IMG/VR virus record: IMGVR_UViG_2737471865_000001
Coordinates: 1-34,668 of that record
Length of the DNA: 34,668 nucleotides
Source: a virus
Taxonomy: Duplodnaviria > Heunggongvirae > Uroviricota > Caudoviricetes
Direction: 5' to 3' (one strand)
Made by a program: the position numbers and the translations under genes. Within the stretch, counting starts at the first letter, position 1, and each line of letters begins with the position of its first letter. This document shows positions 1,794 to 13,859 of this stretch, one piece after another. The notes below the pieces were generated by a model, which saw only the letters and a program-made list of their open reading frames with translations, had not been told where the DNA came from and ran no database searches.

Positions 1794-2090
1794 TCAGTCA
1801 TTACTGATAGCGCCATAGCGTGAGCGGTAATTACGCAGGCGCGGGTCGATATATTCAGGGAAGTGGGTATATGTGGCTTTGCGGAATGGTCGGATTGATG
1901 TCTGGTAAATGCGCTCGCGTTCTTCTTTCTCTGCAAGCCATATGCAATGGCGAAATTCCTTTTCCTCTTTCGTTTCCTGCGGTAGCGACATTATCCGATC
2001 GTAGTTTTTTCTGAATTTATCCAGCACCTCCGATACGGAATTGCCGGAACAGCGGCGCGGGTCATCCGCACCATACCGAGGCGCTGGCAT
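1794..2090 (-). CDS. hypothetical protein (98 aa)
   Basis: ORF packed directly downstream of ssb in the same operon; basic, no recognisable motif. Confidence 0.45.
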   Translation of the reverse strand: MPAPRYGADDPRRCSGNSVSEVLDKFRKNYDRIMSLPQETKEEKEFRHCIWLAEKEERERIYQTSIRPFRKATYTHFPEYIDPRLRNYRSRYGAISND

Positions 2091-2103: not shown

Positions 2104-2610
2104 TTAAATTGCGTGAATAGCGTGACGAGGGAAGGGGAGAGTTACTGGTGCAAAGGGTATATCGTCGTCAAAATCCATCGGAGGTTCGTTGTGTTGTGCT
2201 GGTGATGATTGCTGCTGTGGCTTCTGTGATTGCCTGCTGGCTGCTTGTTGTTTGCTGTCGCCAATGCCGCCAAGCATTTGCATCACGCCATTAATTCCGA
2301 CATGAACCTCGGTTGTGTAACGGTCTTGCCCTGACTGGTCTTTCCACTTTCTGGTTCTCAGCATTCCCTCGAAATAAATCTGATCACCTTTTTTCACATA
2401 CTGCCCCACGACCTCAGCCAGTTTCCCGGATACAGCAACACGATGCCATTCAGTCAATTCCTTTTGCTCGCCAGTATTTTTATCTCGCCATTGTTCTGAC
2501 GTGGCTATTGTCAGGTTAGCGAACGCTGTTCCTGATGGTGAGTATCGAACTTCCGGGTCTTGTCCTACCCGACCAAGGATAATCACCTTATTTACGCCTC
2601 TGCTTGCCAT
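2104..2610 (-). CDS. ssb: single-stranded DNA-binding protein (SSB) with a C-terminal extension past the DDDIPF tip
   Basis: OB-fold N-terminus [23 protein letters not shown]...; Gly/Gln-rich linker; acidic MDFDDDIPF motif. Unlike canonical SSB, the ORF continues for 15 more codons ([15 protein letters not shown]) before TAA at 2104..2106. Confidence 0.9.
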
Positions 2611-3318
2611 TTATGCCGCCTGTTTTAGTTCGTTAACTCTGATGTTCATTACCTGAACGCATTTAGCCTGCGCATCCTCATTGCCAGCCATTAATTGCCA
2701 GTCACGCTGATAACGCTCGATGAGTTTTTTCTTGTCAGTTTCTGTTGACGCATAATCGCTGAAGTCTTTCAGGATTTGTTCGCAGTCAACCGATGGAGAT
2801 TTCTGGTTGGTATTTTCTGGTGATGGTTTGTTATCTGATGCTGGGATTGCCCATCCCGGAAGCGATGGAGGGAGCCAGTAAAATCCTGTTCCATCCTTCA
2901 GTTTTGCCCTGTGCCACCCCTGCTTTTTATCGAGAGATGTTTGTGCGAAACCTTCCTCAAGGTTATACAGATACCGACCGATTCCCCACTGAACGGCAGC
3001 GCGCTTCATTGCACCGGAACGACCACCTTTGACGGCTTCTACCTGCGTGTTTTCAGCAGCATCCCATTTGGTTACCCATTCGGAATCAATCTTTATTGAT
3101 ATGCCGCATTCAACGCCGCCGTTGTTGGGAATATCGCGGTATTCATTGCGCCATCCTGCTTTGCCGCAAACATCGTCCAGGCGCTTCATGATTGCCCGGT
3201 TCGTGACATAAGCCAGCACCATAGCCCACACCTTGCCATCGCGTGTTTTACCGCTTTGCTGTATTCGCCATTCGATATCTTCAGGGCTGAATGGCTCATC
3301 GAATTTGTTCAAATCCAT
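2611..3318 (-). CDS. single-strand annealing recombinase, Rad52-like N-terminal domain with P22 Erf-like C-terminal tail
   Basis: N-terminal region has the Rad52/Sak-like motif KRAAVQWGIGRYLYN. The C-terminal ~60 aa (ILKDFSDYASTETDKKKLIERYQRDWQLMAGNEDAQAKCVQVMNIRVNELKQAA) closely resembles the C-terminus of P22 Erf as I recall it. Located next to ssb. Confidence 0.7.
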   Translation of the reverse strand: MDLNKFDEPFSPEDIEWRIQQSGKTRDGKVWAMVLAYVTNRAIMKRLDDVCGKAGWRNEYRDIPNNGGVECGISIKIDSEWVTKWDAAENTQVEAVKGGRSGAMKRAAVQWGIGRYLYNLEEGFAQTSLDKKQGWHRAKLKDGTGFYWLPPSLPGWAIPASDNKPSPENTNQKSPSVDCEQILKDFSDYASTETDKKKLIERYQRDWQLMAGNEDAQAKCVQVMNIRVNELKQAA

Positions 3319-3405
3319 AATTCACCTCAGAATGGACATGGCCCAAGGAAATAACGCTGATTTAATACTTCAGTCTTTGCCGCATTTAAAAATACGCGAA
3401 CACCT

Positions 3406-3576
3406 TCACGATCTCCCTTCTGGCGATACATTAACGCCTGCTGCGTGTACATGCGTCTCTGTAACTTGCTCTCCTTCACTGTGGTTGCAAGTGACATGAA
3501 TATCTCCTTCGTTACCGATTAATTCTTTCATCTGACGAATGAATTCTTCGTCTGACCAGTTATCTGTAAAACTCAT
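3406..3576 (-). CDS. hypothetical small early protein (56 aa from the ATG)
   Basis: Track ORF starts at a GTG; the ATG at 3574..3576 gives MSFTDNWSDEEF... and overlaps the upstream stop as ATGA (translational coupling). Confidence 0.4.
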   Translation of the reverse strand: MSFTDNWSDEEFIRQMKELIGNEGDIHVTCNHSEGEQVTETHVHAAGVNVSPEGRS

Positions 3577-3725
3577 TTCCTGCGATACCACGGAAGGTTG
3601 ATAGCTGATTTCATCGCTTTATTTGCTTCAAGCCACATTTTTGAATCACCAATAAATCTGGCTATTACTGCTTTGTTCTGTGCAGCACGAAGCATCTGGT
3701 GATTGATGGCTATTTCATTGCGCAT
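3573..3725 (-). CDS. Kil-like small protein (50 aa), not in the ORF track
   Basis: My translation: MRNEIAINHQMLRAAQNKAVIARFIGDSKMWLEANKAMKSAINLPWYRRK. The FIGD.KM core and position (between cIII-like and the recombination genes) resemble lambda Kil from memory. GGAGG RBS. Confidence 0.4.
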   Translation of the reverse strand: MRNEIAINHQMLRAAQNKAVIARFIGDSKMWLEANKAMKSAINLPWYRRK

Positions 3726-3844
3726 AACGCCTCCAGTTGTTTCTTTGCTGCTCTGATTAATTGTTTAACTCGGCGTGATAATTCAGATTCGTGCGGGTAG
3801 AAAGCGGACATGACGCCGCTACCCGCTAAAATATATTCATTCAT
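3710..3844 (-). CDS. cIII-like small protein (44 aa), not in the ORF track
   Basis: My translation: MNEYILAGSGVMSAFYPHESELSRRVKQLIRAAKKQLEALCAMK. Resembles the lambda cIII N-terminal and central region (M.YAIAG...ESLLERITRKLR) from memory. Start overlaps the HNH stop as TAATG. Confidence 0.4.
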   Translation of the reverse strand: MNEYILAGSGVMSAFYPHESELSRRVKQLIRAAKKQLEALCAMK

Positions 3845-4356
3845 TATTTGCTCCTGTAGAATTCGCCGTGATGCTTTCTGGCAAAGTCGCAGTAAGCTTT
3901 TTTGGCATCTTCTAATTCATTAAAGTACCCTAGATGTTTTTTCTTTCCGTTTAATTTCCCATAGGCAGCCCACTTTCTACTTTCCTTCTTCCATGTGACT
4001 CCTTTGCAACCTGATTTGTTGAGGGTGTTTATTTTACTATTCATTGAATTCTGTGAGTAAGTTGCAAGCCTCAGATTGCAAATTCTGTTATCTGTCTTAA
4101 TGCCATTTATATGGTCGATAATACCTTCAGGCTCAACACCGAAAGTGATAATCCATGCAAGTCTATGTGCAGCATAGTGTCTTCCGTTAATGAAAATCCT
4201 TAAGTAGCCGCTTGTTGTTATTGTTCCGGCAGTTCCACCTATCTTCCTTGCTCCATAAGATTTTAGCCATGTGAACTCACCAGAAATAGGGTTATATTTG
4301 ACAACATTATTAATCTCACTTAGGGAAATTAATTCAAGAATCTTTATAAATGCCAT
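3844..4356 (-). CDS. HNH homing endonuclease with AP2-type DNA-binding domain
   Basis: HNH_3-type motif GIIDHINGIKTDNRICNLRLATYSQN followed by an AP2-like GVTWKKESRKWAAYGKLNGKKKHLGYFNELEDAKKAY. AT-rich coding sequence. The track start is TTG at 4369..4371; ATG at 4354..4356 with an AGGA RBS is more likely. Confidence 0.8.
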   Translation of the reverse strand: MAFIKILELISLSEINNVVKYNPISGEFTWLKSYGARKIGGTAGTITTSGYLRIFINGRHYAAHRLAWIITFGVEPEGIIDHINGIKTDNRICNLRLATYSQNSMNSKINTLNKSGCKGVTWKKESRKWAAYGKLNGKKKHLGYFNELEDAKKAYCDFARKHHGEFYRSK

Positions 4357-4437
4357 TTTATATCCTATCAACTGCGTTCATTAATCAGCGTTTACGCTCA
4401 TGAATAAACACCTCTCGTGAAGCGTTATTGTTATGCA

Positions 4438-4600: not shown

Positions 4601-4801
4601 TCAGGCAGCCTTGTTGTTCTGTTTACCAAGTTCTCTGGCAATCATTGCCGTCGTTCGTATTGCCCATTTATCGACATATTTCCCATCTTCCATTACAGGA
4701 AACATTTCTTCAGGCTTAACCATGCATTCCGATTGCAGCTTGCATCCATTGCATCGCTTGAATTGTCCACACCATTGATTTTTATCAATAGTCGTAGTCA
4801 T
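4601..4801 (-). CDS. ral: restriction-alleviation protein Ral
   Basis: 66-aa Cys-rich protein MTTTIDKNQWCGQFKRCNGCKLQSEC... matching lambda Ral as I recall it, in the expected position between N and cIII. Confidence 0.6.
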   Translation of the reverse strand: MTTTIDKNQWCGQFKRCNGCKLQSECMVKPEEMFPVMEDGKYVDKWAIRTTAMIARELGKQNNKAA

Positions 4802-5006: not shown

Positions 5007-5349
5007 ATGACCATTTTTTATTTGGATTTCGTTGGTGAGCGTGATTAACAACTCTGTGCATTACATCCTCATATTTTTCATCTTCAATTTTTTCGACATC
5101 GCGAGGAAATGGTGTTGCTAATGCTTTGTCAACTTTGTCCATTGGTTCTTCATTAATTTTATATTCAGGACCGTCATCTATAGCATTAAATCCAGGTGTT
5201 ACACCGTTTTTTAATGCATATGCTATCCTTTTTTCCCATCTCGCTATTCTCCTCCTGTCTCGAGATGTAAGACCTCTATCAGATACTTTTCTGTTTTGTC
5301 CGCGGTCAGGATTAACATAAATAGTCTTTTTCACCATAAGCATACTCAA
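5005..5349 (-). CDS. hypothetical hydrophilic protein (114 aa) between N and ral
   Basis: ORF whose stop region overlaps the N start codon as ATGA; no recognisable domain. Occupies the position where lambda carries sieB-region accessory genes. Confidence 0.5.
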   Translation of the reverse strand: MSMLMVKKTIYVNPDRGQNRKVSDRGLTSRDRRRIARWEKRIAYALKNGVTPGFNAIDDGPEYKINEEPMDKVDKALATPFPRDVEKIEDEKYEDVMHRVVNHAHQRNPNKKWS

Positions 5350-5651
5350 TAAGCACCGTACGGTAGTTTACTGTACAATTTTATTTTTTGGACTGCATGT
5401 ATTTTGTTTCCTAATGGGTTTGAATCTTTGTAATAAATACTTCTATTTTTTCGAACGACTTCTTCTTTCTTCTTGCAGCAAAGGCTTCCTAGTGATGCTG
5501 CTTTGTCTGCTCTGACGCAACCAGAGAGCTTTAGCGCAATTTTTCGCGCCAGTGCTTCATTACTGCGTCGCTCGGCAATAAGTTCTGCTCTGCGAGCTTT
5601 GTAGCGGCTTTTTGCCGTACCTTTGGATTCTTTCCAGACAATGGTTACCAT
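5346..5651 (-). CDS. N: N-like transcription antiterminator, phage-21 type
   Basis: Arginine-rich motif GTAKSRYKARRAELIAERR matches the phi21 N RNA-binding peptide from memory. ATG at 5649..5651 is preceded by AAGGAG. Sits immediately downstream of PL and nutL. Confidence 0.8.
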   Translation of the reverse strand: MVTIVWKESKGTAKSRYKARRAELIAERRSNEALARKIALKLSGCVRADKAASLGSLCCKKKEEVVRKNRSIYYKDSNPLGNKIHAVQKIKLYSKLPYGAY

Positions 5652-5761
5652 GATGGTCTCCTTTAAGTGGCTTTGGCGCATGACGCGTCGAGGTGCTTAT
5701 CTTCTCGATCGCTGTCTTGCAGCTGCAATTCGCGCCATCCCCAAAACCACTCAAGTTCTGG

Positions 5762-5966: not shown

Positions 5967-6617
5967 TTAAGGAAGGTTTGCTAGCTTGGCATCAACGACA
6001 ACGCCAATGATTTTACAGTTCCCATTGATTTCAATCATTGGGTATTGTGGATTGAGTGGTTTCAGGAATTTTCTACCGGCATCAATAACTAACTTTTTGA
6101 ATGTCGCCTCGTTTTCTCCTTCAAGTTTGGCGACTACCAGCTTTCCATTACGTGGTTCGACTTCTGGGTCGACGAGAATAATCATCCCCTCAGGAATACT
6201 CAGTCCTGCCGGGGCAGTCATTGAATCGCCTTTAACGTCGAGCCAAAAAGAGTCTTCAGAACAATCTACCGTTGTGTCGTACCAGTTATCTATTGCACGC
6301 CTATGATATGGCTCTACAGCTTCCATCCAACATCCTGCGCTTACCCAACTAATTAGAGGATACGAACCTCTTGGATCATGCCTGCTGTGATAGGCAATGT
6401 TTGAAAGACTATCCTCTCCTTTCAACAGGTAATCAGGGGAGCACTGCAAAGCCTTGGCTAAGGCCAATAGGTTTTCGCCATTGGGCTCAGTTTCAGATCG
6501 CTCCCATTGGGAAATAGCAACATTAGACACGCCAACCATCTTGCCAAGGGCAGCCTGCCTAATCTTGAGTTCTTTTCTGCGAGCGCGAATACGCTCACCC
6601 ATCAGTTGTGTATTCAT
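5967..6617 (-). CDS. c2: prophage repressor C2 (CI-type; HTH plus LexA-like S24 peptidase domain)
   Basis: 216 aa: N-terminal HTH (QAALGKMVGVSNVAISQWER) and C-terminal autocleavage domain (GDSM...VVAKL). Essentially matches P22 C2 as I recall it. Confidence 0.93.
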   Translation of the reverse strand: MNTQLMGERIRARRKELKIRQAALGKMVGVSNVAISQWERSETEPNGENLLALAKALQCSPDYLLKGEDSLSNIAYHSRHDPRGSYPLISWVSAGCWMEAVEPYHRRAIDNWYDTTVDCSEDSFWLDVKGDSMTAPAGLSIPEGMIILVDPEVEPRNGKLVVAKLEGENEATFKKLVIDAGRKFLKPLNPQYPMIEINGNCKIIGVVVDAKLANLP

Positions 6618-6697: not shown

Positions 6698-6883
6698 ATG
6701 TACAAAAAAGATGTTATTGACCACTTCGGAACCCAGCGTGCTGTTGCTAAAGCACTAGGCATTAGCGATGCAGCAGTCTCTCAGTGGAAAGAAGTTATCC
6801 CAGAGAAAGACGCCTATCGATTGGAAATCGTTACAGCTGGCGCCCTGAAGTATCAAGAAAGTGCTTACCGCCAAGCGGCATAA
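6698..6883 (+). CDS. cro: Cro repressor (P22 type)
   Basis: 61 aa MYKKDVIDHFGTQRAVAKALGISDAAVSQWK..., HTH protein directly downstream of PR; matches P22 Cro from memory. Confidence 0.92.
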   Translation: MYKKDVIDHFGTQRAVAKALGISDAAVSQWKEVIPEKDAYRLEIVTAGALKYQESAYRQAA

Positions 6884-11744: not shown

Positions 11745-11977
11745 GCAAAATTAAATCTGGTTATCCAGGGAATGGGGAATACCCGAAGCCATATTTACCT
11801 GTAACTGTGACCACTCAATCTAGGCATCCACATCATTTCAAGCAAAGTGGCACAGCTTATTGGAGTGGCAAGCGGTGGATAGGTATTGATGGGTTCAAAA
11901 TTGGGTATGCAAAGGTAATTAAATGGGAATTTAACATCACAAACTGGAGTTCATCCCATGAGGAAACTAACGTTTGA
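11741..11977 (+). CDS. hypothetical protein (78 aa)
   Basis: ORF overlapping neighbours by ATGA-type junctions; no recognisable motif. Confidence 0.4.
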   Translation: MSKIKSGYPGNGEYPKPYLPVTVTTQSRHPHHFKQSGTAYWSGKRWIGIDGFKIGYAKVIKWEFNITNWSSSHEETNV

Positions 11978-12398
11978 ACTAAGAAGCCCCATCCATCAGC
12001 AGAACGCCATTCAAGCTATCCAGCAAATCCTTCCAGACCCAACCAAACCAATCGTAGTAACCATTCAGGAACGCAACCGCAGCTTAGACCAGAATCGAAA
12101 GCTTTGGGCTTGCCTTGGTGACGTCTCTCGTCAGGTTGAATGGCATGGTCGCTGGCTGGATGCAGAAAGCTGGAAGTGTGTGTTTACCGCAGCATTAAAG
12201 CAGCAAGACGTTGTTCCTAACCTTGCCGGGAATGGCTTTGTGGTAATAGGCCAGTCAACCAGCAGGATGCGTGTAAGCGAATTTGCGGAGCTATTAGAGC
12301 TTATACAGGCATTCGGTGCAGAGCGTGGCGTTAAGTGGTCAGACGAAGCGCGAATGGCTCTCGAATGGAAAGCGCGATGGGGAGACAGGGCGGCATGA
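11958..12398 (+). CDS. ninB: NinB (Orf-family recombination mediator)
   Basis: 146 aa; [73 protein letters not shown] matches lambda NinB from memory almost residue for residue. Confidence 0.93.
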
Positions 12399-12975: not shown

Positions 12976-13144
12976 TCCATCCCAATCTCTTCAATACCAG
13001 AAAGAAAGCGTCGAGCGGGCTTTAACGTGCGCTAACTGCGGTCAGAAGCTGCATGTGCTGGAAGTTCACGTGTGTGAGCACTGCTGCGCAGAACTGATGA
13101 GCGATCCGAATAGCTCAATGTACGAGGAAGAAGACGATGAATGA
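12968..13144 (+). CDS. ninF: NinF
   Basis: 58 aa [46 protein letters not shown]... with CxxC...CxxCC zinc-ribbon-like pattern; matches lambda NinF from memory. Confidence 0.88.
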   Translation: MLSPSQSLQYQKESVERALTCANCGQKLHVLEVHVCEHCCAELMSDPNSSMYEEEDDE

Positions 13145-13859
13145 GTTAATAAATGGCAATGCCATCAAAATGACAAGCATTGAAATCGCTGAGTTGGTTG
13201 GTAAGCGTCATGACAATGTGAAACGTACCATCGAAACGCTGGCTAAAAATGGTGTTATCCGGCTTCCTCAAATTGAGGTTTCCGAAAGAATCAATAACTT
13301 AGGGTTCAATGTTCAGTACGAGCATTACGTCTTCGAAGGCGAACAAGGTAAGCGAGACAGTATTGTCGTTGTTGCCCAGTTGTCGCCAGAGTTCACCGCT
13401 CGCCTTGTTGACCGCTGGCGAGAGCTTGAAGAAGCTGCGGTTAATATCCCCAAAACGCTACCGGAAGCGTTGCGCCTTGCTGCTGATCTTGCCGAGAAGA
13501 AAATGCAACTGGAAAACCAGCTCGCAATTGCCGCACCTAAAGTTGAGTTTGCCGATCGAGTTGGCGAGGCCAGCGGAATTTTGATTGGAAACTATGCAAA
13601 GGTTGTTGGTATTGGTCCAAACAAACTGTTTGCATGGATGCGCGATCACAAAATCCTTATTGCTTCAGGTTCCCGGCGCAATGCGCCAATGCAGGAATAT
13701 ATGGATCGCGGCTATTTCACAGTGAAAGAAACAGCTGTCAACACAAATCACGGAATACAGATATCGTTCACCACAAAAATCACCGGGCGTGGTCAACAGT
13801 GGCTGACCAGAAAGCTGCTCGATAACGGAATGCTGAAAGTAACCGGGGAGGCTGCTTAA
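13137..13859 (+). CDS. Rha / KilAC-type phage regulatory (antirepressor-like) protein
   Basis: N-terminal Rha-like winged-helix segment (MTSIEIAELVGKRHDNVKRTIETLAKNG) and C-terminal KilA-C/AntB-like region. Confidence 0.65.
   Translation: MNELINGNAIKMTSIEIAELVGKRHDNVKRTIETLAKNGVIRLPQIEVSERINNLGFNVQYEHYVFEGEQGKRDSIVVVAQLSPEFTARLVDRWRELEEAAVNIPKTLPEALRLAADLAEKKMQLENQLAIAAPKVEFADRVGEASGILIGNYAKVVGIGPNKLFAWMRDHKILIASGSRRNAPMQEYMDRGYFTVKETAVNTNHGIQISFTTKITGRGQQWLTRKLLDNGMLKVTGEAA

Follow-up and report, generated by a model that had tools for sequence, protein, structure and literature searches.

A Rad52/Sak-type annealing core with a P22 Erf-type C-terminal domain in the recombination module of a lambdoid Escherichia coli phage

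The window analysed here, that is, the whole 34,668-nucleotide stretch of the Caudoviricetes record IMGVR_UViG_2737471865_000001, contains the early-left operon of an E. coli phage or prophage resembling P22 or CUS-3. From a CI-type repressor gene (5967-6617, opposite a cro-like gene), the order runs via an N-like gene (5346-5681, a weak match below the Pfam cut-off) and ral, an HNH endonuclease gene (3844-4371, minus strand; phrog_99, E 1e-68), cIII and kil, and two overlapping small ORFs to the gene of an annealing protein (2611..3318, minus), followed by ssb (2104..2610, minus; PF00436, E 1.6e-36) and abc2, encoding anti-RecBCD protein 2 (1794..2090, minus; PF11043, E 4.6e-61). Such a module of an anti-RecBCD protein, an SSB and an annealing protein with no nuclease has been termed "HK75-type" (PMC12315714). 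The HNH gene, located between cIII and the upstream early-left genes, resembles a mobile insertion, and mEp235 carries a different gene in this region. The two small ORFs (3327-3497, minus, phrog_1723, and 3406-3591, minus, phrog_2123; both labelled "recombinase") immediately precede the annealing-protein gene and are predicted in different frames with an overlap of about 90 nt; they are 100 % identical to HK022_42 and HK022_42.1.

The annealing-protein gene comprises 235 codons plus a stop codon and coincides exactly with the ORF put forward in an original prediction for this locus, in which the (minus) strand was left unstated; both strings quoted there are present in the protein, with KRAAVQWGIGRYLYN corresponding to residues 105-119 and ...STETDKKKLIERYQRDWQLMAGNEDAQAKCVQVMNIRVNELKQAA forming the C-terminus. 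A ribosome-binding site (GAGGTG, 3323-3328, minus) lies 4 nt 5' of the ATG at 3318 and overlaps the stop codon of the small ORF upstream, while the TAA directly abuts the ATG of ssb. The family phrog_1097, which bears the PHROGs label "Erf-like", matches the protein over its full length (E 3.9e-130), and NCBIfam holds no model for it. The gene is found in 402 of 5426 complete E. coli genomes (392 at ≥80 % coverage), where PGAP names the product "Rad52/Rad22 family DNA repair protein". Furthermore, about 5600 homologues from many Enterobacterales genera were retrieved, with full-length coverage in nearly all of the top 120.

The N-terminal part of the protein (residues 1-159; 2842..3318, minus) represents an annealing domain of the Rad52/Sak type, as had been proposed. 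Pfam Rad52_Rad22 (PF04098) matches residues 4-136 with an E-value of 5.1e-26 and 91.9 bits against a cut-off of 20.3. Conversely, ERF (PF04404) gave no match with the whole protein, nor with residues 1-170 alone at E ≤ 10. Residues 6-159 are 59 % identical to Sak of Lactococcus phage Q33, and the similarity ends at LPGWAIP. The segment KRAAVQWGIGRYLY at residues 105-118 constitutes the conserved basic motif of the main helix; the pattern KRAAVxxGxGRYLY is invariant in ten sequences from Enterobacterales, Lactococcus, Vibrio, and Pseudoalteromonas phages, including K105, R106, G112, G114, R115, and Y116. Its K-R-A...G... portion is what we take to be the equivalent of human RAD52 K152/R153. This correspondence can also be found in PMC2896510 (Fig. 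2). In the AlphaFold2 (AF2) model, the core consists of strands and helices with pLDDT values mostly of 80-95, in keeping with the fold of Rad52-type annealing proteins, for which a three-stranded sheet on a long helix is characteristic. When the full model was compared with the PDB by Foldseek, the top 16 matches were all yeast Mgm101 or human RAD52 (probability 0.75-1.0; E-values 7e-4 to 2e-2), albeit at low TM-scores of 0.2-0.43. Judging from characterized relatives and from the 59 % identity to Sak, the core would oligomerize into rings or filaments, bind single-stranded DNA, and anneal complementary strands. Within the phage collection, cores of this type extend to Lactococcus, Vibrio, Pseudoalteromonas, and Rhodothermus phages. 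For phages whose hosts belong to different bacterial phyla, 59 % identity between the core proteins is unusually high, and ssb follows directly in both cases; at the DNA level, the E. coli phage core (2842-3318, minus) and that of an L. lactis phage (L007:1971-2465) are 69 % identical over 270 nt.

The C-terminal part is of a different origin. Only residues 157-235 align with P22 Erf (residues 134-205; sequence taken from NC_002371) in BLASTP, with 65 % identity over 79 residues and an E-value of 3e-31, which bears out the earlier assertion that the last ~60 residues match the C-terminus of this protein. Identity rises to 75 % over the last 57 residues, which make up the C-terminal domain (CTD; residues 179-235, 2614..2784, minus), and tblastn of the phage collection returned E-values of 1e-22 to 8e-25 for P22; at the level of sequence, the similarity is thus far beyond chance. 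P22 Erf itself matches Pfam ERF (PF04404) at residues 5-146, and its CTD lies outside the Pfam ERF model. A Pfam scan of the C-terminal piece assigned no family, and with respect to the ERF family the annealing protein lacks the ERF-type N-terminal annealing domain but possesses the CTD of P22 Erf. Between core and CTD, a flexible linker (residues 160-178; 2785..2841, minus) is predicted, the length and sequence of which vary among homologues. The full AF2 model (42 homologues, mean pLDDT 80.6) drops below a pLDDT of 50 at residues 162-176, indicative of a disordered linker, and then displays helices at 179-192, 196-209, and 214-234. Modelled alone from 27 diverse sequences, the CTD was again predicted to form three helices, with a pLDDT of 86 overall and above 90 for 54 of 70 residues. 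Structure prediction hence yields a core, a disordered linker, and a confident three-helix CTD. PDB sequence searches with full-protein and CTD profiles matched nothing meaningful. In the last CTD helix, the conserved polar residues R227, E230, and K232, beside I226 and L231, offer an obvious surface for mutation.

A swap between "unrelated recombinase families", as originally worded, is not an accurate description. Rad52_Rad22 and ERF are separate Pfam families, and hhalign of the Rad52-type against the ERF N-terminal domains gave a probability of only 0.04 %, although with shallow profiles. In the literature, however, Sak/Rad52, Erf, and Redbeta have been united in one Rad52 superfamily of annealing proteins on the basis of iterative profiles and AlphaFold-based comparison (PMC2896510, PMC9870868). 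The swap therefore took place between very distant homologues that agree in fold and in task. This shared fold and function of the ERF and Rad52 cores helps to explain why the swap is tolerated.

The junction itself is visible at the nucleotide level. In local BLASTN comparisons, the window resembles P22 only in abc2 (89 %) and over 2611-2781 (78 %), the latter corresponding to the last 57 codons of the gene and ending exactly at the stop codon. Phage L, by contrast, is 91 % identical across the whole gene (3335-2611), breaks off at the stop codon, carries abc1 where the window has ssb, and becomes similar again at abc2, while the stretch that phage L shares with P22 (87 % identity) begins at about codon 179 of erf and includes abc1 and abc2. 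HK022 matches the window at 99.5 % upstream, up to just before the start of the annealing-protein gene, where it has an ERF-type gene that is followed by a different neighbour; the match resumes at abc2 with 95 %. These breakpoints define the upstream ORFs, core plus linker, CTD, ssb or abc1, and abc2 as exchangeable units. The one junction inside the gene, at about codon 180, coincides with the predicted linker (162-176 in the AF2 model), supporting a domain boundary as the point of exchange. The original prediction of a chimera created by domain swapping is hence substantiated, with a Rad52/Sak core on one side and a P22 Erf-type CTD on the other.

The CTD was found only on ERF and Rad52 cores among the proteins examined. 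ERF cores carry it in P22, HK022, Klebsiella RCIP0034, and Erwinia EhrS_49, all four of which match PF04404, as well as in P0023 and P0025; Rad52 cores carry it in the protein studied here, Yersinia 21.09, and P0017. CTD sequences cluster by subtype and not by core. Identity between subtypes reaches only 38-52 %, yet it amounts to 89 % between the CTDs of P22 (ERF) and a Salmonella Rad52-core protein, 87 % between those of P0023 (ERF) and P0073 (Rad52), and 75 % between those of EhrS_49 (ERF) and an Erwinia Rad52-core protein. Since the closest relative of a CTD thus sits on the other core in three subtypes, the CTD comparison indicates at least three separate exchanges and not one ancient event. 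In contrast to the core, the CTD family is small and confined almost entirely to Enterobacterales phages. An exhaustive HMMER search of 1.84 billion representatives retrieved 17 matches at E ≤ 1e-3, a number that is an underestimate because each cluster is represented by one member; this search replaced a word-indexed search with the 62-aa CTD, which had returned short fragments only and was uninformative on architecture. The phage matches belong almost without exception to phages of Salmonella, Escherichia, Klebsiella, Shigella, Erwinia, Yersinia, and Morganella. Among the database proteins with this CTD, P0016, P0021, and P0027 are evidently frameshifted or fused gene calls (P0016 consists of a DUF1980_C fragment joined to the last ~90 residues of the annealing protein), and database counts of "architectures" accordingly need care.

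A protein of this layout is not new, but already described, common, and an ordinary phage recombination protein. "Erf domain swaps" were described in the genome papers of Sf6, ES18, epsilon34, and L, with only the C-terminal ~55 residues resembling P22 Erf (PMC2629481, PMC8022706); the epsilon34 paper treats gene 36 as a called homologue and notes the swap (PMC2629481), and the phage L paper agrees, explaining the pattern by the horizontal transfer of a single domain (PMC8022706). Our protein is 99.6 % identical to mEp235_032, annotated as "Rad52/22 family double-strand break repair protein", and shares 99 % identity with its counterparts in mEp235, mEpX2, HK75, and IME10 and 92-93 % with ES18 gp49, ST64T, and epsilon34 gp36, while phage L is 91 % identical in nucleotides and Sf6 gp28 98.6 % identical over the last 70 residues. 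In length and two-domain layout, it is essentially no different from the "Erf" of Sf6, ES18, ST64T, epsilon34, L, HK75, and mEp235. The gene downstream does vary, being ssb in the window, HK75, Sf6, and ES18 but abc1 in L and ST64T.

With P22 Erf, the protein has in common the CTD, the arrangement of an N-terminal ring domain, linker, and small CTD, and a place in the early-left operon that is flanked by abc2 on one side and, on the other, by the small ORFs following kil (arf in P22); it differs in its N-terminal domain, which is of another Pfam family and without detectable sequence similarity, and in the ssb that occupies the place of abc1. The lactococcal Sak proteins (ul36 ORF252 and Q33 Sak) are biochemically studied phage Rad52 homologues. 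They share the Pfam family of the N-terminal domain (59 % over residues 6-159 for Q33 Sak) and the ssb directly downstream, but come from phages of another host phylum, and their C-terminal ~90 residues are unrelated to the Erf-type CTD. Lambda Redbeta is likewise built from an annealing domain (about 180 residues) that a linker connects to a small CTD of three helices, and both proteins end in -AA; its core, however, is of the RecT/Redbeta type, and the module in the window lacks an exonuclease partner.

Alternatively, the protein might not be a chimera at all, but a highly diverged Erf with a drifted N-terminus and a C-terminus conserved by descent. The common superfamily of ERF and Rad52/Sak (PMC2896510) and the PHROGs label of phrog_1097 would be compatible with such a history, which is nevertheless extremely improbable and already contradicted by the data: the core is 59 % identical to lactococcal Sak without similarity to ERF cores, the nucleotide similarity to P22 starts abruptly at about codon 180, and CTDs on the two core types are 87-89 % identical. 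Likewise contradicted is an assembly or annotation artefact, the likelihood of which we regard as negligible. While a few database entries with the CTD are clearly frameshifted or fused (see above), an intact ORF of 235 aa is present in many independent phage genomes as well as in the 392 complete E. coli genomes covered to at least 80 %, and nearly all of the top 120 of some 5600 homologues are full length. The best explanation is therefore that the annealing protein arose by horizontal exchange at the linker and that such exchanges have occurred repeatedly between ERF and Rad52 cores in Enterobacterales phages. Taken together, we consider it very probable that the gene encodes the single-strand annealing protein of an "HK75-type" module in a lambdoid (P22-like) E. 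coli phage and that it was formed by linker exchange; docking to a partner is the most likely role of its CTD.

In such a mechanism, the N-terminal ~160 residues would, by comparison with relatives, provide the Rad52/Sak annealing domain with its ring or filament, and the C-terminal ~57 residues would be tethered to it by the flexible linker as a three-helix bundle like that on P22 Erf. Architecture and analogy suggest that the most likely function of the CTD is to dock the annealing ring to a partner that the core would fail to recognize alone, either a factor of the host or a protein shared by these modules; candidates include RecBCD modified by Abc2 and a small upstream protein. A precedent is the CTD of Redbeta, also a three-helix bundle; it interacts with lambda Exo as well as with the SSB tail, and recombination depends on it (PMC6393309; see also PMC9870868). 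In the Erf homologue Gp77, a flexible three-helix CTD is positioned above the ring (PMC13017515), and according to the current view annealing proteins need a match to the tail of the host SSB (PMC12054835). The analogy appears to be architectural only: hhalign of the CTD detected no sequence similarity, with probabilities of 0.6 % against the Redbeta CTD (a weak test, with a single sequence on the Redbeta side) and 0.2 % against the NinB (Orf) protein of the window, and fold comparison gave no clear specific match to the Redbeta CTD (6M9K) or lambda Orf. As to the partner itself, the SSB tail is a tentative choice that may well prove wrong, another partner such as Abc2-modified RecBCD or a small upstream protein appears somewhat doubtful, and a role of the CTD within the protein itself seems rather improbable.

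The original prediction regarded the CTD as a conserved partner-interaction module consistent with the neighbouring ssb. The first part of this view is plausible by analogy, but gene contexts do not support binding to the phage-encoded SSB. A dedicated docking module for this SSB is favoured insofar as ssb lies directly downstream and is translationally abutted to the annealing-protein gene, annealing proteins generally depend on SSB C-terminal tails (PMC12054835, PMC5928155), and the phage SSB carries a DFDDDIPF motif. However, P22, phage L, and Erwinia phage EhrS_49 possess the CTD without any phage ssb, EhrS_49 even without an anti-RecBCD gene (also PMC12315714, Table 1), whereas in Lactococcus phage Q33 ssb adjoins a Sak whose C-terminus differs from the Erf-type CTD. 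Each core type is found with either kind of downstream gene, which makes four combinations: Rad52 core and ssb in the window, Rad52 core and abc1 in phage L, ERF core and abc1 in P22, and ERF core and the SSB-like gp40 in HK022. The CTD is hence not co-inherited with a phage ssb, and if SSB is the partner, the host SSB must be sufficient. As the IPF of the phage SSB is moreover not terminal but followed by 15 more residues, dedicated docking to this protein is quite improbable. A purely intramolecular function, in which the CTD would control how rings or filaments assemble, or how DNA is released, without recruiting a partner, draws on passages about Redbeta, said there to need "intra- and inter-molecular interactions" of its C-terminal region (PMC5052646), and about Mgm101, the C-terminal tail of which is described as affecting DNA binding and ring stability (PMC3655812). 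It is difficult to reconcile with CTDs that are 75-89 % identical on two cores without detectable sequence similarity, as the same CTD on dissimilar cores leaves little room for a specific CTD-core contact, and the CTD of Gp77 makes no contact to other subunits (PMC13017515); we thus deem it improbable. Docking of the annealing ring to a partner by way of the CTD accordingly remains our preferred reading.

Several observations concern the neighbouring genes in their own right. The canonical IPF tip within the DFDDDIPF motif of the phage SSB (2104-2610, minus) is internal, with the 15 additional residues located at about 2107-2151; the match to the TIGR00621 ssb model stops at residue 153 of the 168. 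As partner proteins of the host usually recognize the free carboxylate at the terminal Phe of SSB, the C-terminal extension should change partner binding. Vibrio, Proteus, and Hafnia phages have SSBs with the same pattern of IPF plus extension (AP[VI]xL[PQ][FY]xR..xH.I; 62-76 % identity), and it likewise forms the C-terminus of a 406-aa "hypothetical protein" from large myophages of Klebsiella, Cronobacter, and Salmonella; no paper on the extension was found in the literature searched. For HK022 gp40 (L003:2695-3078), the annotation reads "likely analog of P22 Abc1", but its match to the SSB family phrog_44 (E 1.8e-28) and its DDSIPF terminus mark it as SSB-like and not Abc1-like; it fits the "SSB-1b" class defined from HK97 gp40 (PMC12315714). 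Regarding the small upstream ORFs, 3406-3591 (minus) has only the N-terminal SDEEFI (DEEF) motif in common with P22 Arf, and homology is not established; P22 Arf and an ORF of Klebsiella RCIP0034 are homologous (phrog_2445). An Arf-like small upstream protein as co-inherited partner was rejected, because the upstream ORFs track neither core nor CTD, being identical in HK022 with its ERF core and divergent CTD.

The C-terminal -AA of the annealing protein is a feature of several proteins in the window. Six apparently real genes end in this manner, with far fewer than one expected from alanine frequency: those of the annealing protein (2611-3318, minus; KQAA), the cro-like protein (6698-6883, plus; RQAA), NinB (11958-12398, plus; DRAA), a Rha/Ant-like protein (13137-13859, plus; GEAA), Ral (4601-4801, minus; NKAA), and a 55-aa ORF (352-519, minus; HQAA). 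Within the annealing-protein family, 33 of 42 homologues have the -AA end, even with preceding residues of variable length, and lambda Redbeta ends in KVAA. The terminal -AA may represent a putative ssrA-like ClpXP tag.

In a more far-reaching interpretation, the CTD would be a portable adaptor of Enterobacterales phages that has moved at least three times between unrelated-looking cores and is the sole carrier of the contact to a factor of the host clade, which could be the SSB tail or Abc2-modified RecBCD. We regard this as unlikely; if true, a core swap would let a phage escape a core-sensing defence (AbiK- or RAZR-like) while the contact is kept, and the strongly conserved terminal -AA of the adaptor might also act as a ClpXP-type degradation tag. 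The grouping of CTDs by host clade could instead reflect separate phage gene pools and not adaptation to a host partner.

Beyond confirmation, the finding is of little importance in itself, but it provides a clean textbook case of lambdoid mosaicism with an in-gene junction at a domain linker, to which the present analysis adds the repeated swapping revealed by the subtype comparison of CTDs. The recurrent natural swaps suggest that such core/CTD chimeras are functional. If the CTD proved to set host or partner specificity, this would be useful for recombineering, as new annealing cores combined with a host-matched CTD could then make annealing proteins portable between hosts.
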